Source: Bacteroidota bacterium (GTDB taxonomy: Bacteria; Bacteroidota; Bacteroidia; CAIKAF01). From it: DNA of 64,000 nt. The stretch covers positions 12,049-76,048 of the forward strand of contig VGMT01000008.1 of assembly GCA_016866335.1 (NCBI GenBank), written 5' to 3'. Under the pieces are notes generated by a model. It had not been told where the DNA came from. It did not search any database and saw only the letters and a list, made by a program, of their open reading frames with translations. A program made the position numbers and the translations under genes. This document shows positions 5,008-50,172 of this stretch, piece after piece; position 1 is the first letter of the stretch; each line of letters begins with the position of its first letter.

Positions 5008-6354
5008 TCAAATTTCTTTCACCGAATGAACCATTCGGATTCCCATTTCTTGTAATTCTTTTAAAACGGGGGCATAACATTCAGCCGCAACAGGTATATG
5101 CACTCCAGGACTAGCAATATGGCCCTTTAAAATGGCCTTTGCTGCTATACCTAGCGGAAGCCCTACCGTTTTGGCCATAGCGGTTTTTACCGAATCTTCG
5201 CCTTCAACAACCAAATGGGCGCGCAACTCGAAGGTTTTACCCTCAATCGTATAATTCAGTAGGTGATACATAACAATCATATCTTTATCCATGGGCGACA
5301 ATGTCCATTTTTTTTCCAAAATATGCTGTAGAATTTGAGCAGGCGATGCAGGCCTTGAAAGCCCCACCGGCTCGTTGTTGAATAAATTCAACCATTTTAA
5401 CTTTCTAAATTCTTCAGAATCCAAGTCCAATCGCAAAGCTTGAGCCAACTTTGTTTCAACGCTATCCGTGGGATGGTAAAACAAAAAGCTGTTAACAAAA
5501 TCACGGTGGGTCATTGCATCTACCCCTTCCATTTGATAGGAATCATCGGTCATTCCCAACTGAACAAAGACATCCCAGGCACGGCAAAATCCAAGCCTTC
5601 GTATGGTACCCCTATACAGTGTTTTGATACCGTTCAGGTTGTACAGATTTAAGTACTTTAAGGAATCCCGATTGCCGTACACCTCGAATTCTCCATATTG
5701 TTCAATTTCTATGACCTCGGTTCGGCGAAACACCTTATGATAAGGAATGTACTTGAATTTGCCTTCGTGTAAAAATTTAACTGCTCCTCCCGAAGCTGCC
5801 AAAACAACGTTCCGAGGGTTCCAAGTAAACTTGTATTTCCATGGTCCCGATTCGCTTGAAGGTGCCATTAATCCCCCTGTATAGCTTTCAAAAGCGCAGA
5901 TTTCAGCCCCCATTGACCGCAGGTGATCAATAAACTGCATGGCCGTCATATGGTCAATTCCTGGATCTAGGCCCATTTCGTTTAAAAAAATTAAACCCTT
6001 TGACCTAGCCTTGGCATCTAAGGCCAGCATTTCATCAGAAAGATAAGAGGCCGTAATCAAATGCGAATTCGATTCTAAACACAATTGGGCAATGCCTATA
6101 TGCATATGGGGCGGAAGCAAAGAAATAACAAGGTGGCAGCCCGTTAGCAAGTTCCTAACATCGTCTATCTGATTTACATCTACAACAGCACCCTTAACCC
6201 AGGGAAATTTGCTGATTTTATTTTTCAGGCCTTGAACATCAACATCGGCAACGATTAAATTCCAATTTGAACTTAAAACCAGATTGGCTAGGTATTCAAT
6301 CATTGAAGAAGCTGATTTTCCCGCTCCTAAAATCAAAATTGTTTTCGTTTGCAT
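5008..6354 (-). CDS. saccharopine dehydrogenase family NAD(P)-binding protein
   Basis: An N-terminal Rossmann motif ILILGAGKSASSMIEYL is present. The 448 aa length and downstream regions are typical of saccharopine dehydrogenase (NADP, glutamate-forming)-like proteins. Confidence 0.65.
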   Translation of the reverse strand: MQTKTILILGAGKSASSMIEYLANLVLSSNWNLIVADVDVQGLKNKISKFPWVKGAVVDVNQIDDVRNLLTGCHLVISLLPPHMHIGIAQLCLESNSHLITASYLSDEMLALDAKARSKGLIFLNEMGLDPGIDHMTAMQFIDHLRSMGAEICAFESYTGGLMAPSSESGPWKYKFTWNPRNVVLAASGGAVKFLHEGKFKYIPYHKVFRRTEVIEIEQYGEFEVYGNRDSLKYLNLYNLNGIKTLYRGTIRRLGFCRAWDVFVQLGMTDDSYQMEGVDAMTHRDFVNSFLFYHPTDSVETKLAQALRLDLDSEEFRKLKWLNLFNNEPVGLSRPASPAQILQHILEKKWTLSPMDKDMIVMYHLLNYTIEGKTFELRAHLVVEGEDSVKTAMAKTVGLPLGIAAKAILKGHIASPGVHIPVAAECYAPVLKELQEMGIRMVHSVKEI

Positions 6355-16384: not shown

Positions 16385-17494
16385 ATGGAGAAACTCAACA
16401 GCAAAACCGAACGCATACGTTGCATTTGTGATTTTCTTGACCGGGGCGGAGGCTCCTTAGTAGAGATGCAAAACGCTGTAAACCAAAACCTTGAAGACAA
16501 GGGGCTTGCAACCATAGAGGTACGGAGCCTCAGGTACTCATTAAGGCAACTCAAAGACGGCGACTTTGAACATAGCCTTAGTCATTTGCCAGAATCAGAG
16601 CGCAAAAATTTATTCAACTGGGAATACCATAGAGGGACGTACCGCTGGGCAGAAAGCAGTTTAAAGCCAGAGTTTGGAGACTTGGAAGAAGAAGAGCGAA
16701 GTACCCTACCCTTTTTGATGGGCATTCTAAAAAGGTACGAAACCTTGCCCGCCGTTCGGCGTATTTTGGGGCAATTGGTTGAACATTACCGGTTGAATGA
16801 AGACGATTTAGAGGGAGCATCGGCTGTATTTCACAGTGCACCCACTCTGTATGTTCAAGGCCACGGGAAGGCCTCAGAGAAAAATGTGGTGGAACTGGCA
16901 ATACAACTTTTAGGGCATATTCGAAAAGAAGAGGTCATTGAATTCAATTACAGCTCAGTGGCTTTTGTGAAATCTGACCTAAACACACTGAATTACCATA
17001 CAGTAATGCCCCTTCAAATTCGATTGTACGACAATTTGTATTACCTCAGTGCGGTTCCCCTGAACGAAAACCACCTGCTTACATTTAGAATTGACCAAAT
17101 TCATGGATTAAGGGTGGATATCGGCAGCGATGAAAACGAAAATCCGATCCATTTCGACCGAAAAAAAGTGGAGAAAAAAATGGGGCTGCGCAGCCATTTC
17201 AAGCATGTTCTTGGGGTATGGAACCATGCAGCAGAAGACCAGGTGCACGATATACGGGTAGAGTTTTTTGGTTGGGCCGCCTCCTATGCAAAGCGTTTGC
17301 AGTTTCACCCAACTCAAACCTTAATACATACCAATGTTAGCAACAACAGCTTGGTTTTCTCATTCAAATTGAAACTAAAACCCGAAGAATTTCCAAACCA
17401 ACCTGCCGAGGAGCGTTCGCCAGAATTGTCGTTTTTTTTAGGCCGGTTTCGAAGGTTTGCCAGGGTACTTAGCTTTGAAGCCCTGAGGGGTTAA
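16385..17494 (+). CDS. HTH-WYL-WCX transcriptional regulator (YafY/BrxR/CapW/PafBC-like)
   Basis: The N-terminal HTH is RIRCICDFLDRGGGSLVEMQNAV. The central WYL motif is YDNLYYLSAVPLNENHLLTFRIDQIHGLRV, matching the pattern WYL..a...R.FRldRI. A C-terminal WCX-like segment VRVEFFGWAASY is present. The gene is divergent from the AAA ATPase gene. Confidence 0.62.
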   Translation: MEKLNSKTERIRCICDFLDRGGGSLVEMQNAVNQNLEDKGLATIEVRSLRYSLRQLKDGDFEHSLSHLPESERKNLFNWEYHRGTYRWAESSLKPEFGDLEEEERSTLPFLMGILKRYETLPAVRRILGQLVEHYRLNEDDLEGASAVFHSAPTLYVQGHGKASEKNVVELAIQLLGHIRKEEVIEFNYSSVAFVKSDLNTLNYHTVMPLQIRLYDNLYYLSAVPLNENHLLTFRIDQIHGLRVDIGSDENENPIHFDRKKVEKKMGLRSHFKHVLGVWNHAAEDQVHDIRVEFFGWAASYAKRLQFHPTQTLIHTNVSNNSLVFSFKLKLKPEEFPNQPAEERSPELSFFLGRFRRFARVLSFEALRG

Positions 17495-17520: not shown

Positions 17521-17690
17521 GTAGGCCTGCGCCCCCGATGGCAGCGGCAGCGACCGAAGTCGGTGCCATGGCTTGCCGCCCCGCGGAGGCGACCTTGGGA
17601 GCCCACGCAGGGGCCAGCAAGCCGCAGCACCGGCAAGGGCGCTACAGCGAACAGCGGGAATAGGCGCCCAAAAAAATCCCTGAAAGCACA
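17521..17690 (-). repeat. GC-rich long-hairpin intergenic element, copy C (inverted orientation, diverged)
   Basis: It shares GGGCTCCCAAGGTCGCCTCCGCGG and GCTTTCAGGG (as reverse complement) with copies at 20197 and 32455. GC is about 65% against a roughly 40% background, and it lies between the WYL gene stop and the ctpA start. Confidence 0.55.
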
Positions 17691-17713: not shown

Positions 17714-19297
17714 ATGATTTCGATGAAGCGAATTACTCTGGCCCTGATTGGGCTGCTGATGCCTGTGCTGAGCCTGCCGCTGTGTGCGCAAATAAACAAT
17801 CCTTCCGAAAAACTCGACGGCCTTCTGTTTTTCTTGGAAAATTATTACCTAGAAAAAATTGACCGCGAAACGCTGATTGAAGCGGCTTTGGAAGGGCTGC
17901 TCAACGAACTTGACCCCCATTCCTACTACTTACCACCCCGCGAACTCAAAGCGTCTGAAGAAGCATTAAGCGGAAATTTTGAAGGCATTGGAGTGCAATT
18001 TAACATTCACAACGACACCATTATGGTGGTAAGCCCCATCAGTGGCGGCCCCTCAGAACGCCTAGGAATTCGCAGCGGAGACCGAATTATTTTCATTGAA
18101 GACACCCTGGTGGCCGGGAAAAAAATAACCAACAACGATGTGTTTCGTTGGCTGCGCGGAAAAAAAGGCAGCATTGTGAATGTTAAAATCATGCGTCCCG
18201 GACTGAGCGATTTGCTTGATTTTGCCATTGTGCGCGATAAAATTCCTGTGTTCAGCATGGACGCAGCTTTTATGCTAAAACCCGGAGTGGGTTACCTGAA
18301 AATAAACCGCTTTGCGGAAACCACAGTAGATGAATTCAAAGAAGGTTGGACCAAATTAAAAGCCCTGGGAGCCAAAGACTTAATCTTAGATTTGCAAGGA
18401 AATTCAGGTGGGTATTTGATGGCCGCCACGGGAATTCTTGACCACTTTTTGGCGAAAGGTAAGTTGCAGGTGTACACCCAAGGCCTGCACAGCGATCGAC
18501 GCGATTTCAAAGCAAGCGGAAATCCGATGCTGTTGAACAACCGACTGGTTGTTCTGGTGGACGAAGGATCGGCCTCGGCAAGTGAAATCGTTGCCGGCGC
18601 CGTGCAAGACCACGACCGAGGTTTGGTGGTTGGACGCCGAACCTTCGGCAAAGGCTTGGTACAAAATACCTTTCCCATGCCCGATGGGTCTGCATTCCGA
18701 CTTACCACCGCCAGGTATTTCACCCCTTCAGGCCGGTTTATTCAAGCTCCCTACAACGAAGGAACCGAAAAATATTACAAGGATTTGGCCAGCCGGTTCG
18801 ACAAAGGCGAATTGACCGACTCGAGCAAGGCGCAAATTCCCGACAGCCTGGCGTTTAAAACCTCGAAAGGACGAACCGTGTACGGGGGAGCAGGCATTAT
18901 GCCCGATGTGTTTGTGCCGCTAGACACCTCCTTTTTTTCGGTATGCCTGAACCGAATTACCGCTGCCGGGCTGCCCTACAATGTTGCCTTAGATTATGTG
19001 GACGCCCACCGGGCAGAACTGCAAAGCGCATACCCCAGCATGGACGATTTTAATTCTAGATTTGATGCCCAGCCTTTGTGGGAAACCCTATTAACCGAAA
19101 TTGAAAAACGTAATCTGCCTTGCGAAACGGGCGATGTTAACCGCAGCAAGGTGTTTTTGCAAACCATGCTTAAAGCCTTGGTAGCTCAAAACCTTCATGG
19201 CCGAGATGCCTTTTTCAAGGTAATGGCCAGCGAAAACGAGTCCATTCAAAAAGCCCTAGAAATGCTGGAAGGCCCTTGGCCAGAATACCTAAAATAA
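17714..19297 (+). CDS. ctpA: S41 family C-terminal processing peptidase
   Basis: A signal peptide, a PDZ domain (GVQFN...GGPSERLGIRSGDRII) and a catalytic region LDLQGNSGG..SASASE are present. Confidence 0.8.
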   Translation: MISMKRITLALIGLLMPVLSLPLCAQINNPSEKLDGLLFFLENYYLEKIDRETLIEAALEGLLNELDPHSYYLPPRELKASEEALSGNFEGIGVQFNIHNDTIMVVSPISGGPSERLGIRSGDRIIFIEDTLVAGKKITNNDVFRWLRGKKGSIVNVKIMRPGLSDLLDFAIVRDKIPVFSMDAAFMLKPGVGYLKINRFAETTVDEFKEGWTKLKALGAKDLILDLQGNSGGYLMAATGILDHFLAKGKLQVYTQGLHSDRRDFKASGNPMLLNNRLVVLVDEGSASASEIVAGAVQDHDRGLVVGRRTFGKGLVQNTFPMPDGSAFRLTTARYFTPSGRFIQAPYNEGTEKYYKDLASRFDKGELTDSSKAQIPDSLAFKTSKGRTVYGGAGIMPDVFVPLDTSFFSVCLNRITAAGLPYNVALDYVDAHRAELQSAYPSMDDFNSRFDAQPLWETLLTEIEKRNLPCETGDVNRSKVFLQTMLKALVAQNLHGRDAFFKVMASENESIQKALEMLEGPWPEYLK

Positions 19298-19301
19298 AGC
19301 T

Positions 19302-20189
19302 ATGAACACCTACGAAAAAGGCATGCTGGCCCCCGACAGCTTAACCGGAAAAACCATTGCAATTACAGGAGGAGGCAGCGGATTGGGCTTAAGCATGGCG
19401 GCCTATTTTCTAGCCTTGGGCGCACAGGTAAGCATTTGCGGCCGAAAAGAAGAAAAACTGGCCTCGGCAGCCGCGGAACTGCAATCCAGAACTGGAAAAA
19501 GCGTATTCTATTTTCCCTGCGATGTGCGGCAATACGATGAGGTGGAAGCCTTTCGCGAAAAAACCATTGAAGCCTTAGGGCCCGTCAATGGATTGGTAAA
19601 CAATGCCGCGGGAAACTTTTTAAGCCCCACCGAACGGTTAAGCCACCGCGCCTTCGATTCGGTGGTTGACATTGTTCTAAAAGGCAGTTACAACAACAGT
19701 TTAAGTTTCGGCAAGTATTGGATTGACCAAAAAATTGCGGGCAACACATTGAACATTGTAACCACCTACGCTTGGACAGGGTCGGCCTACGTGGTTCCAT
19801 CGGCCTGCGGCAAGGCGGGGGTTTTGGCCCTGACGCGGTCTTTGGGTGTTGAATGGGCCAAATACGGCATTCGAACCAACGCTATTGCTCCAGGCCCCTT
19901 CCCTACTCCGGGCGCTTGGGACCGCTTGTTTCCGCAAGAATTTATGCAGCAGGTTGACATACCCTCGAAAATTCCGGTGGGTCGGGCGGGTGTTCACCAA
20001 GAGTTGGCCAATTTAGCGGCGTATTTAATGTCGGATTTTTCGGCCTTTATTCAGGGCGAGGTAATTACCATTGATGGTGGCGAATGGCTTAAAAACGGAG
20101 GGGAATTTAGTTGGGTCGGCGATTTGATTCCGGCAGAAATGTGGGATATGGTTGAGGCATTGATTCGAAGCAAATCTGGCAAATCGTAA
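19302..20189 (+). CDS. SDR family oxidoreductase (2,4-dienoyl-CoA reductase-like)
   Basis: The Rossmann motif TGGGSGLG, the NNAAG motif and a YxxxK-type region are present. It is convergent with the thiolase gene. Confidence 0.72.
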   Translation: MNTYEKGMLAPDSLTGKTIAITGGGSGLGLSMAAYFLALGAQVSICGRKEEKLASAAAELQSRTGKSVFYFPCDVRQYDEVEAFREKTIEALGPVNGLVNNAAGNFLSPTERLSHRAFDSVVDIVLKGSYNNSLSFGKYWIDQKIAGNTLNIVTTYAWTGSAYVVPSACGKAGVLALTRSLGVEWAKYGIRTNAIAPGPFPTPGAWDRLFPQEFMQQVDIPSKIPVGRAGVHQELANLAAYLMSDFSAFIQGEVITIDGGEWLKNGGEFSWVGDLIPAEMWDMVEALIRSKSGKS

Positions 20190-20196
20190 TTTGTTA

Positions 20197-20351
20197 AGGG
20201 GGCGGCTGCCGGGCTTTCAGGGCTAATCCGCATCGGGCATTGGGGGCAGAATGCTCAGCAAGTAGCTCCTCGCGTCGCTCTTGCTGCGCGTTCTGCCCTG
20301 CCAATGCCCGCTTTGCGGGTTAGCCTCTTCAATCCCTGCCGCAGGGTGGCG
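20197..20351 (+). repeat. GC-rich long-hairpin intergenic element, copy A
   Basis: The whole unit folds as nested inverted repeats: GGCTAATCCGCA/TGCGGGTTAGCC, CGGGCATTGG/CCAATGCCCG and GCAGAATGCTCAGCAAG/CTTGCTGCGCGTTCTGC. It starts 8 nt after the SDR gene stop and ends 26 nt before the NlpC/P60 stop. Confidence 0.65.
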
Positions 20352-29893: not shown

Positions 29894-31342
29894 GTGAACG
29901 GCTGGATTATTCTTTTACTTTTTCTAGCTTACCTTTCTTTTTTAGCCTTGGTAGGCTACCTGACTGGTAAAAATACCGACGAAGCAGGTTTTCATAAGGG
30001 CGGAAAAAAAACGGCTTGGTACATCATTGCCCTCGGTATGGTGGCCGATAGCCTTAGCGGGGTGACCTTTATTAGCATCCCTGGAAATGTCCACGGGCAA
30101 GGTTTCTCTTACATGCAAATTGTTTTAGGTTATTTTCTAGGATATCAAATTATTGCAGCTGTCCTTATCCCCTTGTATTTCAAACTCAACTTAACCAGTA
30201 TTTACGAATATCTACAGCTTCGTTTTGGAATCATTGGGCAAAAAACCGGATCCGCCTTTTTTCTTATCTCCCGAATCATCGGTGCCTCTGGCAGGCTTTT
30301 TCTGGCTGTAAGTATTTTTCAGTTTTTTTTCCTTGATTCCCTTGGCGTCCCCCTTGAAATTACGGTGGTTGCCATCATGGCTCTCATGTACCTCTACACC
30401 TATAAGGGGGGAATTAAAACCCTGTTGTGGACCGATGCCATTCAAGCCTTTGTCATGTTGGCCGCTCTTGGCCTTACCCTTTATTCCATCCATGAATCCC
30501 TTAATCTTTCTTTGCTGGAATGGAAAAGAATCGCAACCAAATCTTGGTGGATTTCCAACCCTCAAGATCCACATTTTTGGGGAAAAGACATCTTGGCAGG
30601 GGCCTTTATAGCCCTAAGCATGACAGGATTAGACCAAACAATGATGCAAAAAAGCCTTGCTTGCAAACAGGTTAAAGACGCTCGAAAAAATATGATTTGG
30701 TTTGGTTTCGCTATTGTTTTTGTCAATTTTGCCTTCTTGCTTCTCGGCGCAGGCCTTTCGCATTTTCTCTTCGCAAAAGGGCTTATTGGAATGGAGTTAA
30801 AAGCCGACCATATTTTCCCATACCTGGCTTTTCATGAACTCGGAACCTTGGCCATGATTGCCTTTTCGCTCGGGTTAATTGCGGCATCCTTGAGCAGTGC
30901 CGATTCCGTTTTAACTACCCTTACCACCGCCTTTTGCATGGATTTTCTTAATTTTTCAAACCCTGAATCCCTGCCAAAAAATCCCGCTCGCATTCGCCAA
31001 AATGTGCATCTTGGCTTTGCCCTGACTCTCTGGCTTTGCATTCTAGCTTTCGACGCCTTGACCAACGACAGCCTTATTTATGTTATTCTAACCCTGGCTG
31101 GTTACACCTATGGTCCCTTGCTCGGTTTATTCAGTTTCGGACTTATCTTACCTAAACTCAAACCAATTCCTTGGACCATTCCCCTTGTTTCAATTATTTC
31201 AGTAGGTCTTACCGCACTCTTTAATTATGTGTTGGCCCCAAACTGGGGCTATTCCCCTGGATTTGAACTTTTACCTCTCAACGGATGCATTACCTTTGTT
31301 GGACTATGGATTTCATCTTTATTTCGCCCCTTAAACGCTTAA
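29894..31342 (+). CDS. sodium:solute symporter family transporter
   Basis: About 13 TM helices are predicted. SSF-like N-terminal motifs are present. Confidence 0.72.
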   Translation: MNGWIILLLFLAYLSFLALVGYLTGKNTDEAGFHKGGKKTAWYIIALGMVADSLSGVTFISIPGNVHGQGFSYMQIVLGYFLGYQIIAAVLIPLYFKLNLTSIYEYLQLRFGIIGQKTGSAFFLISRIIGASGRLFLAVSIFQFFFLDSLGVPLEITVVAIMALMYLYTYKGGIKTLLWTDAIQAFVMLAALGLTLYSIHESLNLSLLEWKRIATKSWWISNPQDPHFWGKDILAGAFIALSMTGLDQTMMQKSLACKQVKDARKNMIWFGFAIVFVNFAFLLLGAGLSHFLFAKGLIGMELKADHIFPYLAFHELGTLAMIAFSLGLIAASLSSADSVLTTLTTAFCMDFLNFSNPESLPKNPARIRQNVHLGFALTLWLCILAFDALTNDSLIYVILTLAGYTYGPLLGLFSFGLILPKLKPIPWTIPLVSIISVGLTALFNYVLAPNWGYSPGFELLPLNGCITFVGLWISSLFRPLNA

Positions 31343-32451
31343 TCGTTTTTGTATTGGTTTGCCTACCAGGTTTAGGTAGCTGCCAAGCCATCGCCGATGG
31401 ATTGATTTATTCCCTCCCAAAATCGGAATTCACTTTGCTTGGAACGGTACGCACAACCCAATACACTCCAGGCCCTTTAGCAACTTACGCAAAAAAATAC
31501 TTGGGAATTCAGGCCAAAGAGATGCCCGAAACAATCCATCAAATTACACAAAGCAAGCTTATTTTAAATTTGTTGCCCGACACAGCATGCCTTTATTTGG
31601 TTCCCAACGCTGTGCTGCAGCAAAACCGATTCAACTTTGGTAGGGGATCAATGCTGCTTTCTGTCAATTCGCCCAACCCAGCCCCTCAACACAATCAAGG
31701 TTTATTCAGTAGGTCTGCAAGCAGCACTGGAAATACTGATTTGCCTGTGCTGCCAATGTTATGCCTAACCCAAGAAACCGACACCATTTATCGCCGAGAA
31801 CTCTTGGCAGATTCCGTTGTGGTTGAACACTGGGAAATTCAAACCCTAATTCAACAGCAAACCACCGAGGAAATTGCCAAAAGTACGGCGCAAAAACTGG
31901 TTCAATTGGAGCAAGAACGGCAACAGTTGCTGCGATTCAATGAAGATGTTCAGTATTCTGGACCCGCCCTTCGGGTCATGCTTCAGAGGCTAGATTCCTT
32001 AGAAACATATTACCATGAATTGTTCCAAGGCCGACAAACTCACCGTATGACTGCTTTTTCCTTTCCTCTTACCCTTTCTAATTCTGAGCTGGCTGATTTG
32101 CAACTTAAAGGACACACAACCAAAGTCATCGCTGGTTTTTCTGCTGACGCAGGCTTCACTTCCGATACCTCCCAAGCATTGCCTCTCGTGCTCAGCATCC
32201 AAGGCTTGGGATTGCCGCAAGCCATGCGCCGGTTTATTCCCGAAAAAGCTGCCAAATCATCCGAAGGTTTGCTGCTTCGCATTCCTGAGCGTTGCACTAT
32301 GCAAATTTCGCTTGGGAATACTTTGCTGATTCGCGAATATCAGCCCCTATTTCAGTTGGGTACTTTGGTGCGCATTCCGCTTCCTAAATCAGGTATTTTA
32401 GAATATTCAATTTGGCCCGAATTGGGCAATCCTGATTCGGTTGAATGGTGA
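31306..32451 (+). CDS. hypothetical lipoprotein
   Basis: A signal peptide with lipobox CLPGLGSC is present. No recognisable catalytic motif was found, and the 5' end overlaps the symporter gene. Confidence 0.4.
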   Translation: MDFIFISPLKRLIVFVLVCLPGLGSCQAIADGLIYSLPKSEFTLLGTVRTTQYTPGPLATYAKKYLGIQAKEMPETIHQITQSKLILNLLPDTACLYLVPNAVLQQNRFNFGRGSMLLSVNSPNPAPQHNQGLFSRSASSTGNTDLPVLPMLCLTQETDTIYRRELLADSVVVEHWEIQTLIQQQTTEEIAKSTAQKLVQLEQERQQLLRFNEDVQYSGPALRVMLQRLDSLETYYHELFQGRQTHRMTAFSFPLTLSNSELADLQLKGHTTKVIAGFSADAGFTSDTSQALPLVLSIQGLGLPQAMRRFIPEKAAKSSEGLLLRIPERCTMQISLGNTLLIREYQPLFQLGTLVRIPLPKSGILEYSIWPELGNPDSVEW

Positions 32452-32454
32452 ATT

Positions 32455-32606
32455 GTGGGCGGGTTCCGGGCTTTCACAGGTAGTCCGCACCCATGCATGC
32501 TGGCTACAGCGGCTTTGCGCGGGCTCCTAAAGTCGCCTGCGCAGCTCGCGTAGCCATACTTGCATGGTTTTGCGGGCTACCTAGCTCAATCCCGCCCGCG
32601 GCCACT
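32455..32606 (+). repeat. GC-rich long-hairpin intergenic element, copy B
   Basis: It is collinear with copy A in CCGGGCTTTCA, TTTGCGGG.TA.C and TCAATCCC.GCCGC. Its stem AGGTAGTCCGCA/TGCGGGCTACCT covaries with copy A. It begins 4 nt after the upstream stop codon and is convergent with pnp. Confidence 0.65.
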
Positions 32607-32669
32607 CATTTCAATACTCCTTTCAAAAAAAATGCTCCCGAAGGAGCATATATTAGTTAAATCCGCGGA

Positions 32670-34874
32670 TTAGTAATCGCGGCGGGGACGAGGACGATCT
32701 CCGCGACCGCCATCTCGGCCTTCTGGGCGGGGACCACGTTCTTCCGGAGCAACCCAACCTTCTGGCTTTGGCAAAAGCGCACGGCGCGACAAACGTAATT
32801 TTCCAGTTGCTTGATCTACCTCCAACAACTGAACATCTATCGTGTCTCCCTCATTCAAAACCTGAGCAATATCTGGAGTTTTTTCCCAGGCATACTCAGA
32901 AATATGAAGCAAACCTTCTTTTTTAGGTAAAATTTCTACAAAGGCTCCAAATGTAGTAATCTTCTTTACCACACCTGTAAAACGATCGCCTGGTTCTGGC
33001 ACACTTGTCATTAAACGAATGCGCTCCTGAGCCATTTTAATACCAACAGGATCTGACCCAGCAATTTCAATCACTCCCTTATTGTCAACATCCTCTAAGC
33101 TAATCACTGTATTGGTCGTCTTCTGCAATTCCTGAATATGCTTACCTCCAGGCCCGATAACCGCACCAATGAATTCCCCTGGAATAATCATGGTTACAAT
33201 TTGTGGTACAAAAGGTTTGAATTCCGCACGAGGCTTTGGCTGAACCGAATCCATAACATCTAAAATATGAATTCGGCCCCGCTTTGCCTGCTCTAAAGCC
33301 TCTTTCAATACTTCAAATGACAAGCCGTTTACCTTAATGTCCATTTGGCAGGCGGTAATTCCCTGACGGGTCCCAGCCACTTTAAAGTCCATGTCGCCAA
33401 GATGATCTTCATCCCCTAAAATATCAGATAAAATAGCATACTTGCCCGTTTCTTCGTCCGATATCAATCCCATGGCAATTCCTGAAACGTGACCTTTCAC
33501 AGGTATCGCAGCATCATGCATCGCCAATGAACCGGCACAAACGGTAGCCATAGAACTTGAACCATTGGATTCCAAAATATCGCTAACAATACGAACCGCA
33601 TAATCAAAATCGCTAGGCACAACCTGTTTAAGAGCACGCAAGGCCAGGTTACCGTGGCCAACCTCACGGCGACCTGTGCCACGCATAGGTTTTGCTTCGC
33701 CCGTAGAAAACGGAGGGAAATTGTAGTGCAACAAGAAACGGTTTTTTCCCTCAATTACTACCCCATCAATAATCTGCTCATCTAATTTGGTACCTAAGGT
33801 TACCGTAGTAAGCGACTGGGTTTCTCCACGTGTAAATACAGCCGAGCCATGAACCATGGGTAGGTAATCGGTTTCTGCCCAAATCGGACGAATTTCATCA
33901 AGTTTACGGCCATCTAAACGCTTGCGCTCATTTAATACACAATCGCGAACTGCTTTCTTTTCAACCGAATGAAAATAGGCTTTGATTAAAAATGAATTTT
34001 CAGCAGCTTCTTCCGAACTTAACCCAGCCACGAACTCTTCTCTAATAGCCTTGAATTTTTCAGATCGCAATTTCTTATTTGCATTTCCTTCGTTGGCTAT
34101 ATCATAGGCACGTTGATAAGCAAACGCAGAAATCCGAGTTTTTAAATCTAGATTGTGTTTTTCATGAGAATAACTACGCTTGGTTTTACCCAATTTAGAT
34201 GCCAATTCAACCTGTGCCTTCACCTGAACCCTAATGGCTTTGTGGGCAAATTCTAAGGCTGAAAGCAAAACATCCTCGCCCACCTCCTTCATTTCTCCTT
34301 CCACCATGACAATATCGTTGGCGTTTCCTGCCACCATCAAATCTAAATCAGCACGCTCTAAATCCGAACGAAATGGGTTGACCACAAAATGACCATCAAT
34401 CCGAGCAACCCGAACTTCAGAAATAGGGGCTGTAAATGGAATATCTGAAACAGCGATGGCTGCCGAGGCTGCCAAACCCGCTAAGCAATCAGGTAGCAGT
34501 TCTTTATCATGGCTAATCAAATAAACCAAAACCTGAGTTTCAGCATGAAAATCATCAGGAAATGTGGGGCGTAAAGCACGATCAATCAACCTAGATATCA
34601 AAATCTCTTGGTCAGAAGGACGAGCTTCGCGCCTAAAAAAGCCACCAGGAAAACGTCCTGCGGCAGCATACATTTCTCGGTAATCTACCGTCAATGGCAT
34701 AAAATCTACATTTTCGCCTGCCTCTGGGCGTGCCACTGCCGTGGCCAACAACATTGTGTTGCCCATGCGAACCACCACAGAACCATCTGCCTGCTTGGCC
34801 AATTTTCCTGTTTCTATGGTCACTAAACGGCCATCTCCCAAATCAATGGTTTGGGTAATTGCTTGAATACTCAT
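32670..34874 (-). CDS. pnp: polyribonucleotide nucleotidyltransferase (PNPase)
   Basis: Two RNase PH domains plus KH and S1 domains are present. The C-terminus has an Arg/Gly-rich tail. Confidence 0.9.
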
Positions 34875-48402: not shown

Positions 48403-48807
48403 ATGCATTGCGTTAAATTCTCTTTACAATCAATAATGCTTAAAAACTTTAGCTTTGCAATTGTAAAAATCAAAGTTATGCGCGTGAAAATCGGTTTAGA
48501 AATAAAGAAATTAAGGAAGTTGCAACGGTTTACACAAGAACAAATAGCCCAAAAACTTGACTTGAGTGTTGCTGGCTATTCTAGGATTGAGAGAGACGAG
48601 GTTAATGTTACTTTGGACCGCTTGCAAGAATTGTCGGATGTACTAGGAACAACTCCCGAATTTCTATTGGGTTGGGAGTCAGGCAAAGAAACCAAAACTG
48701 TTAAAGATTCAAGCCTTGATAAAATTGAGAGGCTTTATCAAGATCAAATCATTCAATTAAAAGAGGAAATTGTGTTTCTTCGAAAACAATTGCAAACAGA
48801 AGCCTAA
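48403..48807 (+). CDS. XRE-family helix-turn-helix transcriptional regulator
   Basis: An HTH FTQEQIAQKLDLSVAGYSRIERDE is followed by a predicted coiled-coil tail. The probable start is the internal Met at 48478. Confidence 0.6.
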   Translation: MHCVKFSLQSIMLKNFSFAIVKIKVMRVKIGLEIKKLRKLQRFTQEQIAQKLDLSVAGYSRIERDEVNVTLDRLQELSDVLGTTPEFLLGWESGKETKTVKDSSLDKIERLYQDQIIQLKEEIVFLRKQLQTEA

Positions 48808-48888
48808 TATTGTTCGCTCACCGTTCTTTGTAAATTGATTGTTTTTAAACGAAATCCATCAATTTATTTGAAAAAATGCATTTTTCAC

Positions 48889-48925
48889 TTGACAGGTAAA
48901 TTCTAATCCCGTAGATTTGCTTTTC
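48889..48925 (+). promoter_or_regulatory. candidate promoter (TTGACA-N17-TAGATTTG)
   Basis: TTGACA lies at 48889-48894 and TAGATTTG at 48918-48925. The latter matches the Bacteroidota sigma-AB -7 consensus TAnnTTTG. It points into a gene-free region. Confidence 0.3.
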
Positions 48926-49359
48926 ACTAGTGAATAAAACCTAACCTAATCGTTCTTGCTTCGTCACTTATTGGGGTGGCGAAGAACACTTCGGGTTCAT
49001 AAAGCGTGAAGTCTGATAGCGATAAAACGCACCTTATACGTGAATTTTATCGCTCGGGGGTCTCATGGATGCTTCTTAAAAACAGTGATATTTAGTTCAT
49101 TGGATTTAGGAAGCGGGAACATTGGGAATGAGACGGGGGCGCTGGCTACGCACCCAAATTAAATAACTCGCTTAGTCAAATTGACTGAATGTATTTGAGA
49201 ATGGACAGTTCCAAGCAATACGTCTTTTTGATAAAATCGAGTTGGTTGTAGAAAAACCGGTTTACGCCCAAGGGAGTCCTTCCTGAAAGTTCAGGTTGCG
49301 TCTCTTTTGGGCGTGCCTTCGACCAATCCCTTATCCAATTTTCCAGCTGTAGAATTGAG

Positions 49360-49503
49360 CGGCATGCAGCCCGGATTGAACGGGCAGACTGCGCCAGCAA
49401 ACCCCTTAGGCCGTGGGCTGCGGAGGCACGAAGTGACCCCGCAAAGCCGCTGGCCTAAAGGGTTTGCTAAGCTGGATGCAAGTGAAAGCCGGATCAGCTG
49501 CCC
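49360..49503 (-). repeat. GC-rich long-hairpin intergenic element, copy D (inverted orientation)
   Basis: It contains CGCAAAGCCGCTG and GTGAAAGCCGGA..CTGCCC. These match the reverse complement of copy B (CGCAAAGCCGCTG, GTGAAAGCCCGGAACCCGCCC) and of copy A. It abuts the yggS stop. Confidence 0.55.
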
Positions 49504-49509
49504 AAATAC

Positions 49510-50172
49510 CTATCCCCTCAAACCAAATATATCGCTCCCTACTCGTACACAGGTACTCCCCTCTTGAACCGCTAGGGGCCAATCCTGCGACATGCCCATC
49601 GATAATAGTGAAATATGCGAAAATTGGGGTATTAATTTGATTTCATGAAAAAGCGAATTCAACCGTTTAAATTCGGCCTCCACAATCCCTTTATCTGATA
49701 CATTGCTGGCCATGCCCATTAGGCCTTGAATAGAAATATACCCTTGAGCCAAAGGAAAAACCTCGGTTAAAAAAGGGATAACCTCCGAAAAAGGCATTCC
49801 GAACTTGGTATCTTCAGAAGAAATTTGAACCTGTATTAGGGCAGATATTTTTATTTCTAAGCGTCTGGCCTCTTTTAGGATTTCATGAAAAAGCCGCACT
49901 GAATCGAGACTATGGATTAAATAAACACTTTGAATAAGGGGTTTCACCTTATTCCGTTGCAAATGACCAATTAAATGCCAGCGAATATCTGACGGCAATT
50001 TACTCGCCTTTTCAAGAAGTTCTTGGACCTTATTTTCACCAAAATCACGAACTCCTGTTTCATAAAGCTCTAGAATCTTTTCAATGCTGTGATTTTTAGA
50101 GACGGCAAGCAATTGAACATGAAGAGGGATTTCGGCCCTAATCCTTCGGTAATTATCAACCGTAGTACTCAT
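49510..50172 (-). CDS. yggS: YggS family pyridoxal-phosphate homeostasis protein
   Basis: A 220-aa alanine-racemase-N-fold protein with the N-terminal lysine region LLAVSKNHS. Confidence 0.78.
   Translation of the reverse strand: MSTTVDNYRRIRAEIPLHVQLLAVSKNHSIEKILELYETGVRDFGENKVQELLEKASKLPSDIRWHLIGHLQRNKVKPLIQSVYLIHSLDSVRLFHEILKEARRLEIKISALIQVQISSEDTKFGMPFSEVIPFLTEVFPLAQGYISIQGLMGMASNVSDKGIVEAEFKRLNSLFHEIKLIPQFSHISLLSMGMSQDWPLAVQEGSTCVRVGSDIFGLRG

Follow-up and report, generated by a model that had tools for sequence, protein, structure and literature searches.

Long-stem palindromic repeats with a Flavo-1-like base in a freshwater Bacteroidota clade

REP and REPIN sequences, together with their RAYT partners (TnpA_REP, of the Y1 HUH type), are high-copy, hairpin-forming extragenic palindromes in which pairing is maintained by compensatory change and which are inherited vertically and persistently; a REP is 20-40 nt long. 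REP/RAYT systems are said to have been treated by Nunvar in 2010 and by Bertels & Rainey in 2011. Elements of a larger size include ERIC/IRU, which are 127-bp imperfect palindromes of Enterobacteria, and the Correia elements of Neisseria, which are miniature inverted-repeat transposable elements (MITEs) of ~100-155 bp whose transcripts are RNase III substrates. Within Bacteroidota, the closest described motif is Flavo-1 (RF01705), which has the Rfam type 'Gene; sRNA'. It was reported in 2010 with 239 representatives (PMC2864571) and is among the most abundant small-RNA families according to a review (PMC9029176), but is still without an assigned function. Here we describe four GC-rich islands, c1 to c4, in a 64-kb stretch of Bacteroidota DNA on contig VGMT01000008.1 (the window, i.e., the whole stretch analysed), and show that they are copies of an ancient, high-copy family of ~150-nt imperfect palindromes from a freshwater Bacteroidota clade. 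As an object, the family falls into a known type, that of REP/ERIC-like palindromic repeats built on a Flavo-1 core. The long-stem branch, its detailed structure and its possible link to a RAYT are new in the literature searched, where a search by characteristic sequence strings returned nothing related to the family.

Four copies of one hairpin family and their structure

A covariance model of 38 family members (R1), run with filters off on both strands of the window, recovered exactly four loci, with scores of 47.1-150.7 bits (Table 1). Everything else scored 12 bits or less, and the top three of these remaining matches were reverse strands of the loci already found. The initial annotation, made from the sequence, had proposed four GC-rich islands at essentially these positions as an intergenic element family with a REP/BIME-like or MITE-like placement. 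The model search bears out a dispersed intergenic repeat family, of the REP/ERIC class, with four copies in the window and 55 in three related metagenome-assembled genomes (MAGs), and chance similarity of the islands is ruled out by the model scores and the covariation controls described below. The copies have a GC content of 61-72%, and the background stands at 43.7% and not at ~40%. As RNA, each window copy forms a single long hairpin. As single-stranded DNA, c3 gave z-scores of -7.1 for the + strand and -5.8 for the - strand, both strands folding far better than shuffles. The sequence blocks previously noticed as shared are real, and correspond to the conserved base of the hairpin and its apical cap; exact CCGGGCTTTCA and TCAATCCC blocks are common to two window copies, with an identical 109-nt spacing.

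Each copy is a ~65-bp imperfect hairpin of ~150 nt, the length of which is near constant, with 125-129 nt between the two markers. We refer to the strand carrying CCGGGCTTTCA as strand A and to the opposite one as strand B; for c1, the - strand is the one that aligns to CCGGGCTTTCA of the other copies. On strand A, a 5' flank with a T-run and then a G-run precedes the closing helix P1 (6-7 bp, GCGGCAG/CTGCCGC or GCGGGT/GCCCGC), which covaries. Next to P1 there is a bulge of 2-4 nt, followed by helix P1b (GGG/CCC, 3-4 bp), above which the CUUUCA and UUCAAU blocks form a short helix with three invariant mismatches. Helix P2 includes gUAG...CUAc plus a U.G wobble, and is surmounted by a UU bulge and a long stem that is free in sequence and conserved in its length and bulges. 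In the foot columns of the 38 copies, U is present in 35/38, A in 25/38 (with U in 8) and G in 35/38, and c1 has the foot on one arm only. The stem ends in an apical cap, GGC-UC-C-UAAA-G-UC-GCC, which on strand B reads GGC-GA-C-NNNN-G-GA-GCC and thereby consists of tandem G.A/A.G pairs, a C-G pair and a tetraloop. Among 63 distinct copies, the strand B loop is UUUA in 28, CUUG in 26, GUGA in 3, GUCA in 2, GCGA in 2 and CUUA in 1, and loop positions 1 and 4 covary (UA:19, CG:13). In c4, the cap is GGUCAC-UUCG-UGCC instead of GGCUCC-UAAA-GUCGCC.

Covariation was strong throughout. RNAalifold predicted 36 pairs, with compensatory changes in 30 of them, and both-side changes were found in 33/48 pairs of a curated structure. 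For the latter, 91.0% of cells were paired, compared with 73.5% upon shuffling and no more than 50% when the partner was slid; the covariation score was 0.415 observed vs 0.122 shuffled and <=0.108 with the partner slid. In alignment A2, the pair counts for P1 were CG:26, GC:6 and UA:2, and both P1b and the CUUUCA block were invariant. Variant copies (L065:7205, L072:2456 and the c1 type) revealed that what appears to be an internal loop is a helix in which positions 2, 3 and 6 are paired, with position 3 changing from U-A to G-C or A-U and position 6 from A-U to G-C. Set between these covarying pairs, the C.U, U.C and C.U oppositions of strand A never vary; on the reverse strand, where the basal helix is GGGAUUGAA/UGAAAGCCC, they read A.G, G.A and A.G. 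The invariance of the mismatches and the cap in a hairpin with a free stem sequence implies recognition by a specific factor. The strong covariation, the conserved mismatches and cap, the retention at orthologous sites and the relationship with Flavo-1 are all absent from the initial annotation.

Two other identities were considered for these hairpins and rejected. A tRNA-like reading was suggested by the T-loop resemblance of GGTTCAATCC and a 7-bp 'acceptor', but no T-stem can form, and the preceding bases belong to the covarying P2 helix; ARAGORN detected no tRNA-like element in the window. For integron attC sites, the R''/R' boxes (RYYYAAC / GTTRRRY) are absent, and only 25/38 copies have the G of 'GTTCAAT'. 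Instead of arrays of co-oriented cassettes, housekeeping genes of mixed orientation surround the copies.

Relationship with Flavo-1 and comparison with other repeats

At gathering threshold, Rfam gave nothing in the window or in 18 related loci, the Flavo-1 cut-off being 42 bits. In E-value mode, Flavo-1 matched c1 on strand B (17527-17665, +) with 17.6 bits and an E-value of 0.21, second to a microRNA model, and it was the top match on a paralog of the c1 subtype (L070:28-176, strand B, 20.1 bits, E 0.051). No Flavo-1 match at E <=10 was obtained for the c2, c3 and L065:7205 regions. By the Rfam score, the elements are non-members of Flavo-1.

The elements were also compared directly with the published seed alignment of Flavo-1 (Weinberg 2010, PMC2864571, supplementary file 151). 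The seed has two basal subtypes, exemplified by GCGUUAGGGAUUGAAGC...CUGAAAGCCCGACC and by UAGCC CCGAUG GAAGU GGAAA UCC...AUAACGGACAGCGG, and their counterparts here are GCGGCAGGGAUUGAACC...GGUGAAAGCCCGG and GCGCC CCCGAUGGCAGCGGCAGCG...ACAGCGAACAGCGGGAAUAGG. The basal consensus GAUWG.AG...G.AWAGC was found in the elements, with a correspondence that runs element by element and includes a compensatory GGG/CCC vs CCG/CGG swap (Table 1). In both, a 3-bp helix (GGG/CCC or CCG/CGG) is followed by an A.G mismatch, two pairs, tandem purine mismatches (GAUUGAA / GAAAGC), two more pairs and a variable terminal stem. Read on the + strand, c1 is CCCCGAUGGCAGCGG...ACAGCGAACAGCGGGAAUAGGCGCC and is collinear with subtype 2 of the seed. 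Given that both basal subtypes co-occur in the same genomes, as they do in the seed, and that the core is shared, the sequence comparison identifies the elements as long-stem, GC-rich relatives of Flavo-1. The two also have in common a high copy number, an intergenic location in either orientation and a restriction to Bacteroidota.

The differences concern mainly what lies above and below this core. Most seeds have short AT-rich stems, whereas the stems described here are unusually long (~100 nt), have a GC content of 65-75% and are of near-fixed length. The GUAG/CUAC foot, the bulges, the G.A-closed cap and the P1 closing helix of 6-7 bp are conserved features of the present family. Within the basal module, the third purine mismatch, A.G in Flavo-1, is replaced in canonical copies by a Watson-Crick pair, A-U or G-C. 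In a distant AT-rich Bacteroidia MAG, a locus of ~32-38% GC carries the same basal module (CGGGCTGCCGGGCTTTCACAAG...GTTGTTCAATCCCTGCCCG, L061:5966-6106) with an unrelated AT-rich interior; across distant lineages, only the base is common.

ERIC/IRU elements resemble the family in their size class, their long imperfect hairpin, their strictly intergenic location in both orientations, the lack of a known transposase, the presence of old, diverged copies and possible effects on mRNA stability. However, they occur in another phylum and have no sequence relationship to it, and their sequence is conserved along the whole element, whereas here the stem sequence is free and conservation is confined to pairing, bulges, base and cap. 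Correia elements are similar in length, are present in high copy number and give rise to hairpin transcripts, but are AT-rich and possess 26-bp terminal inverted repeats and a TA target duplication, none of which is found here.

Table 1. Positions of the elements, their parts and adjacent genes, and alignment of the basal modules with those of Flavo-1. Positions without a locus name refer to the window; folding energies are for RNA, with z-scores vs dinucleotide shuffles.
Feature	Position	Strand	Description
c1	17525-17672	-	R1 47.1 bits, E 1e-9; divergent subtype; fold of 17521-17690 -94 kcal/mol, z -2.0
c2	20197-20346	+	R1 119.3 bits; fold -95.9 kcal/mol, z -6.1
c3	32454-32603	+	R1 150.7 bits, E 2e-34; closest to family consensus; fold -99 kcal/mol, z -8.9
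c4	49362-49506	-	R1 78.3 bits, E 4e-17; diverged canonical copy; fold -79.5 kcal/mol, z -4.3
c2 block CCGGGCTTTCA	20209-20219
c2 block TTCAATCCCTGCCGC	20328-20342
c3 basal module, 5' half	32459-32476	+	alignment A2, pair counts; P1 strand GCGGGT 32459-32464, bulge TCC 32465-32467, P1b GGG 32468-32470, mismatch helix CTTTCA 32471-32476
c3 T64 and T65			T64 in U.G wobble pair; T65 unpaired
c3 apical cap	32522-32537	+	among most conserved A2 columns; reverse strand GGC-GA-C-UUUA-G-GA-GCC
c3 basal module, 3' half	32585-32599	+	alignment A2, pair counts; mismatch helix CTCAAT 32585-32590, P1b' CCC 32591-32593, P1' GCCCGC 32594-32599
WYL-domain protein gene	16385-17494	+	upstream of c1; in tandem with the S41 peptidase gene
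CtpA-like S41 peptidase gene	17714-19297	+	downstream of c1
SDR gene	19302-20189	+	c2 lies 7 nt past its stop
NlpC/P60 gene	20378-21082	-	convergent, at c2
DUF4831 gene	31285-32451	+	c3 lies 2 nt past its stop
pnp	32670-34874	-	convergent, at c3
YggS-like gene	49510-50172	-	c4 lies 3 nt past its stop
Copies at RAYT-like gene, L017 and L128	153 nt upstream		strand A and gene on one strand
Copies at RAYT-like gene, L124, L125 and L126	210 nt upstream		inverted
Hairpins within RAYT genes	L017:5064-5087, 5163-5184; L131:2849-2874, 2953-2978; L129:2872-2899; L130:2754-2805
Flavo-1 seed subtype 1			GCGUKA-GGG-A-UW-GNA-GC ... GC-GNA-WA-G-CCC-GACC
Canonical copies (c2, c3, c4), vs seed subtype 1		B	GCGGCA-GGG-A-UU-GAA-CC ... 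GG-UGA-AA-G-CCC-GG-CUGCCGC
Flavo-1 seed subtype 2			UAGCC-CYG-A-UK-GNA-GY-GGAAA-UCC ... GAUU-GNA-GC-GNA-MA-G-CRG-GAAAUAGC
c1, vs seed subtype 2		B	GCGCC-CCCG-A-UG-GCA-GC-GGC-AGCG ... CGCU-ACA-GC-GAA-CA-G-CGGG-AAUAGGCGCC

Distribution, age and genomic setting

An exact-pattern scan of one genome per species yielded 104 loci, with ~90 chance matches expected for the pattern. The real matches clustered in three freshwater/brackish Bacteroidota MAGs, ErkenSummer_bin-6618, LaPlata_bin-1703 and casp15-mb.160, from which R1 identified 55 sense copies in 40 loci (~300 kb). The carriers are labelled Bacteroidetes, Flavobacteriales or Bacteroidia. These loci were chosen for holding one copy, and the ~15 copies beyond those that brought them in correspond to ~1 per 20 kb, as compared with 1 per 16 kb in the window. 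Extrapolating from the density in the window and the MAG loci, hundreds of copies genome-wide are plausible. Copies may also face each other in pairs within one intergenic region, 80-456 nt apart, as seen at L006:1604-1752(+)/1832-1980(-), likewise in L045, and at L079:6527-6674(+)/7131-7278(-), a clustering that resembles bacterial interspersed mosaic elements (BIMEs). A phage origin was rejected, as no family copies were found in IMG/VR, where 14 pattern matches failed as members. Seven IMG/VR viral contigs (L114-L118, L122 and L123) carry the pattern with the same 109-nt length, are non-members by the covariance model and probably share a conserved phage gene.

The family is old, because within-genome paralogs are at most 90% identical (median identity ~0.70, maximum 0.89-0.90), and its turnover is slow. 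The c1/c2 region and a locus of the casp15 MAG (L099) are syntenic, with flanks that are 74.4% identical across 4,042 nt; L099 has a copy at each of the two sites and also keeps the WYL-domain gene together with c1. Similar findings were obtained for four metagenome loci with CtpA orthologs (87-99% identity), in which every covered site is filled, i.e., the c1 site in L105, L106 and L108, and the c2 site in L106, L107 and L108. The locus of a CtpA homolog with 46% identity has no copy at the c1 or c2 site. Orthologous copies keep the base and cap, with stems that differ by compensatory changes, for example GGTGC.../...GCACC vs CCTGC.../...GCAGG or, among c1 orthologs, GG..CC to CC..GG. The apical ~60 nt of c1 are identical in five genomes.

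All four window copies had initially been described as lying just past a stop codon. This is true of three, which lie 2-7 nt from the stop, but c1 is 30 nt away from the upstream stop and 41 nt before the next start codon, antisense to both genes. Three of the four had also been placed between convergent genes; at c4, the other convergent gene is 554 nt away, c1 is located between tandem genes, and c2 ends 31 nt before the stop of the NlpC/P60 gene. The interval from the HTH_3 gene (48403-48807) to c4, positions 48808-49361, is a stretch of ~550 nt without an open reading frame (ORF) of at least 80 aa, and no Rfam family was detected in it at gathering threshold in a scan of the whole window.

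A proposed REP-like mechanism and its rivals

We consider the chances about even that the elements are a REP/REPIN-like family of single-strand hairpins. According to this reading, one strand would fold into the hairpin when single-stranded, and a protein specific for both sequence and shape would recognise the base with its mismatches, the GUAG foot and the cap with its G.A closure. The candidate partner is a RAYT-like Y1 (HUH) transposase that is syntenic in related genomes and has a copy just upstream. Spread would now be very slow, with copies persisting at their sites, and pairing would be kept either by selection or by intra-palindrome templated repair. As a possible by-product, a hairpin transcribed as part of a 3' untranslated region (3'-UTR) would also block 3' exonucleases. 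REP/RAYT is the best-fitting known mechanism because it combines single-stranded DNA hairpins that have recognised irregularities with a GTAG foot paired with CTAC on the other arm, vertical persistence, compensatory pairing and an adjacent RAYT-like gene in conserved synteny. The fit has its limits, however, since the elements are several times longer than a REP and also longer than typical REPINs, and their GTAG foot sits inside an additional conserved basal module.

The candidate partner emerged when all retrieved DNA was searched for ORFs with an HUH motif and, after it, Y..NP; a single one, L017:4780-5412, was found. This ORF matches Pfam Y1_Tnp (E 1.3e-8), and its best NCBIfam match is REP_Tyr_transpos, at 68 bits against a cut-off of 80. 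The protein has the motifs DHFH, WQ and YIHQNP, and its homologs include some annotated as 'REP element-mobilizing transposase RayT'. Orthologs of 66-92% identity share the same synteny (prfB, RAYT, reprolysin-like protease), and a copy of the element was found 153-210 nt upstream of the RAYT-like gene in 5/5 loci with enough upstream sequence. At one of these, L126:2470-2960, a complete inverted copy (2642-2790) is flanked by the apparent 5' (TTTAGGGCGGCAGCCGGGC) and 3' (CCTGCCGCAGGC) ends of an older copy that ran the other way. Such an arrangement resembles nesting or replacement, and no further hint of turnover was seen; the remnants of the other configuration suggest at least two arrivals at the spot upstream of the RAYT-like gene. 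Quentin 2018 (PMC6006769) describes Bacteroidetes-rich RAYT subclasses, including 2.6 (YIH[QN]NP), with 'atypical' REPs copied elsewhere in the genome, and 2.4, the REPs of which are 'long double-foot' with 5' GT[AG]G and 3' C[TC]AC. The long stem here is footed exactly as the subclass 2.4 double-foot hairpins (GTAG...CTAC).

Several findings weigh against a link between RAYT and the element family, which is suggestive only. There is no RAYT in the window. The link consists of one syntenic locus in one clade, with at most ~2 independent events, and at a density of one element per 16-20 kb the probability of chance adjacency to a given gene is ~10% per event. Moreover, the element occurs on one side of the RAYT-like gene only, with none downstream. 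No Flavo-1 core was present within 2.5 kb of five distant RAYT homologs (L129-L133, 48-58% identity), using a strict base-pairing regular expression that recovers many family members; a mini covariance model of the basal module only (R2) was too weak, missing even the window copies. The subclass-2.6 REP list of PMC6006769 contains nothing Flavo-1-like in the parts consulted. Finally, short hairpins of the GTAG-GGGCAGAC type lie inside RAYT coding sequences (Table 1), taking the forms GTAG-GGGCAGAC...GTCTGCCC and GGGCGAAC...GTTCGCCC-CTAC in the Lewinella homolog, and these could be the true cognate REPs of the RAYTs. They match the 'REP inserted in tnpAREP' feature that is described for subclass 2.4 (Quentin 2018, PMC6006769).

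Short GTAG REPs were also considered as the dispersed partner of the RAYT and rejected, being found in the sampled sequence only inside the RAYT gene, and no other dispersed family of GTAG-footed hairpins was found in the window or the MAG loci. Two of the distant RAYT homologs, L132:2501-3196 and L133:2501-3097, are located in type I restriction-modification operons, between hsdS and hsdR.

Active mobility, too, finds little in its favour. REPIN populations normally comprise a master sequence and many identical copies, whereas we found no master sequence, no near-identical paralogs and no empty orthologous sites for this family. In addition, no target-site duplication was detected in 58 flank pairs, and neither solo ends nor a longer element bounded by these ends turned up in ~1 Mb of sequence.

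The pairing itself bears on the level at which the structure is read. G.U pairs made up 2.7% of cells, and any G.U was seen at 14 pair positions vs any A.C at 15 (39 vs 20 by cells). As G.U is rare and, by column, no commoner than A.C, the constraint is in essence one of Watson-Crick pairing, as expected if the structure is required on DNA or on either strand. Action on DNA or on either strand is also favoured by the near parity of sense and antisense copies between tandem genes (17 vs 14), by the strong folding of both strands as single-stranded DNA and by the many Flavo-1 matches of F. psychrophilum that are untranscribed (PMC9723704). Three points count against a purely DNA-level role. The U.G wobble on strand A is kept in 30/38 copies, the 5' end of strand A lies 2-65 nt past a co-oriented stop in ~31/58 copies (~11 for the other end), and Flavo-1 was judged likely to be an RNA on the grounds of its covariation and variable-length stem (PMC2864571). 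As RNA, strand A is marginally the more stable of the two (40/63 copies, mean 1.1 kcal/mol). Strand B, for its part, contains tandem sheared G.A pairs together with loops of the GNRA/CUUG type, both familiar as stable motifs, and is therefore tentatively the better candidate for the strand that is folded and recognised.

The long-stem branch constrains Flavo-1 in four ways: invariance is confined to mismatches (tandem G.A on one strand) and a capped loop and does not extend to the stem sequence; pairing is almost purely Watson-Crick, with copies in either orientation; copies are retained for long at orthologous sites; and a RAYT-like gene lies beside a copy in related genomes. Taken together, these constraints lead to the testable hypothesis that elements of the Flavo-1 type are not small-RNA genes but correspond, in Bacteroidota, to the REP/REPIN hairpins.

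The main rival to the REP-like reading, with which it may coexist, is a role in cis on mRNA 3' ends. The transcribed 65-bp hairpin would block 3'-to-5' exonucleases or be cut by a double-strand-specific RNase, a possibility that we place well below an even chance. Equally tentatively, the mismatches and cap could be sites at which an RNA-binding protein or an RNase binds, or its anti-determinants, which would be compatible with a REP-like origin. E. coli REPs stabilise upstream mRNA, and a similar function would agree with the proximity of strand A to stop codons, also seen for 3/4 window copies, with the high stability of the hairpins, with the conserved wobble and with the maintenance of structure at orthologous sites through compensatory changes; the tandem G.A pairs, like the GNRA/CUUG loops, are also a classic feature of RNA. 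Based on crude ORF calls (minimum 90 aa), 52 copies were flanked by genes to the left and right, in 17 tandem sense, 14 tandem antisense, 14 convergent and 7 divergent cases. Copies are enriched just past stop codons and depleted between divergent genes, and the depletion is a further point in favour of a role on RNA. The near parity of antisense and sense copies between tandem genes nevertheless speaks against a cis function on RNA, as does the rarity of G.U pairs, and the tandem G.A, GNRA and CUUG motifs sit opposite to the strand that is co-transcribed with the adjacent gene. Furthermore, some copies lie beyond the canonical terminator of the upstream gene (L080, L043), and Flavo-1 matches in F. 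psychrophilum, which are sense or antisense to transcripts, are in many cases outside transcribed regions (PMC9723704).

A more speculative reading, which we think rather unlikely, is that the copies are host-maintained docking sites and not selfish repeats, serving some protein that would read the tandem-G.A helix and the G.A-closed tetraloop. With the same reservation, reading might take place on RNA, the sites forming a 3'-UTR regulon throughout Bacteroidota, or else on DNA in extruded form, with a function in chromosome organisation. Docking sites would explain the retention at orthologous sites with compensatory changes across genus-level divergence, and also why there are no young copies and why the basal module has unrelated interiors in distant Bacteroidia. 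If this were true, Flavo-1 would be the short form of the same system.

Independent small-RNA genes, each with its own promoter and yielding a rod-like RNA of ~150 nt with a trans-acting or protein-titrating role, are very unlikely. The loops are conserved, and the strong covariation and variable stem length are the grounds on which Weinberg 2010 took Flavo-1 for a likely RNA. However, hundreds of paralogs with a free stem sequence would be ill-suited to regulation in trans, no terminator accompanies any of the copies scanned (c1, c2 and c3), and the F. psychrophilum transcriptome gives no support (PMC9723704). A promoter on the reverse strand was considered and rejected, since the exact Bacteroidetes -7 box TAnnTTTG was present just upstream on that strand in only ~3/56 copies (L021/L032, L072), and no position-specific promoter signal was found in either flank.

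Less probable still are intrinsic transcription terminators, which the initial annotation had proposed in bidirectional form. The elements are GC-rich hairpins past stop codons, and the convergent genes at c2 have no terminator-like structure between them apart from the element. Yet neither strand of any copy carries a T-tract beyond the hairpin; it is the 5' flank that holds the T-run, opposite an A-run, and the 3' flank has the consensus RRGC-N-CCTCAA, so that the flanks are the reverse of what a bidirectional terminator needs. A terminator scan that covered c1, c2 and c3 called none of them, and for a terminator the conserved mismatches and cap would be unnecessary. Canonical terminators are present in these genomes, at L080 and L043 and in the window itself, where the pnp terminator (32632-32649, minus strand), a hairpin ATGCTCCTTCGGGAGCAT followed by TTTTTTT, is located between pnp and c3; the genome thus uses ordinary intrinsic terminators alongside the elements.

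Least credible of all are classical MITEs, i.e., deletion derivatives of DDE-transposase insertion sequences moved by cut-and-paste via terminal inverted repeats, a MITE-like nature having also been proposed initially: the copies are short, non-coding, dispersed and palindromic, and the L126 remnants suggest insertion into or next to an older copy, but the only terminal inverted repeat is the 6-7 bp of P1, which covaries rather than being conserved, and target-site duplications, solo ends, longer elements and young copies were all lacking in the material described above. In agreement with the earlier description, there is no transposase inside or consistently beside the copies. The neighbours are ordinary housekeeping genes, the 107 neighbour proteins representing 103 Pfam families, and no recurrent neighbour family or transposase was found among the 25 of these families with the most members.

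Rfam annotation misses the long-stem branch entirely, and plausibly hundreds of 150-nt GC-rich islands per genome are consequently left unlabelled or annotated as spurious ORFs. GC-rich hairpins do yield such annotations: at L128:2487-2705, a public 72-aa gene call overlaps the element copy at 2629-2777.

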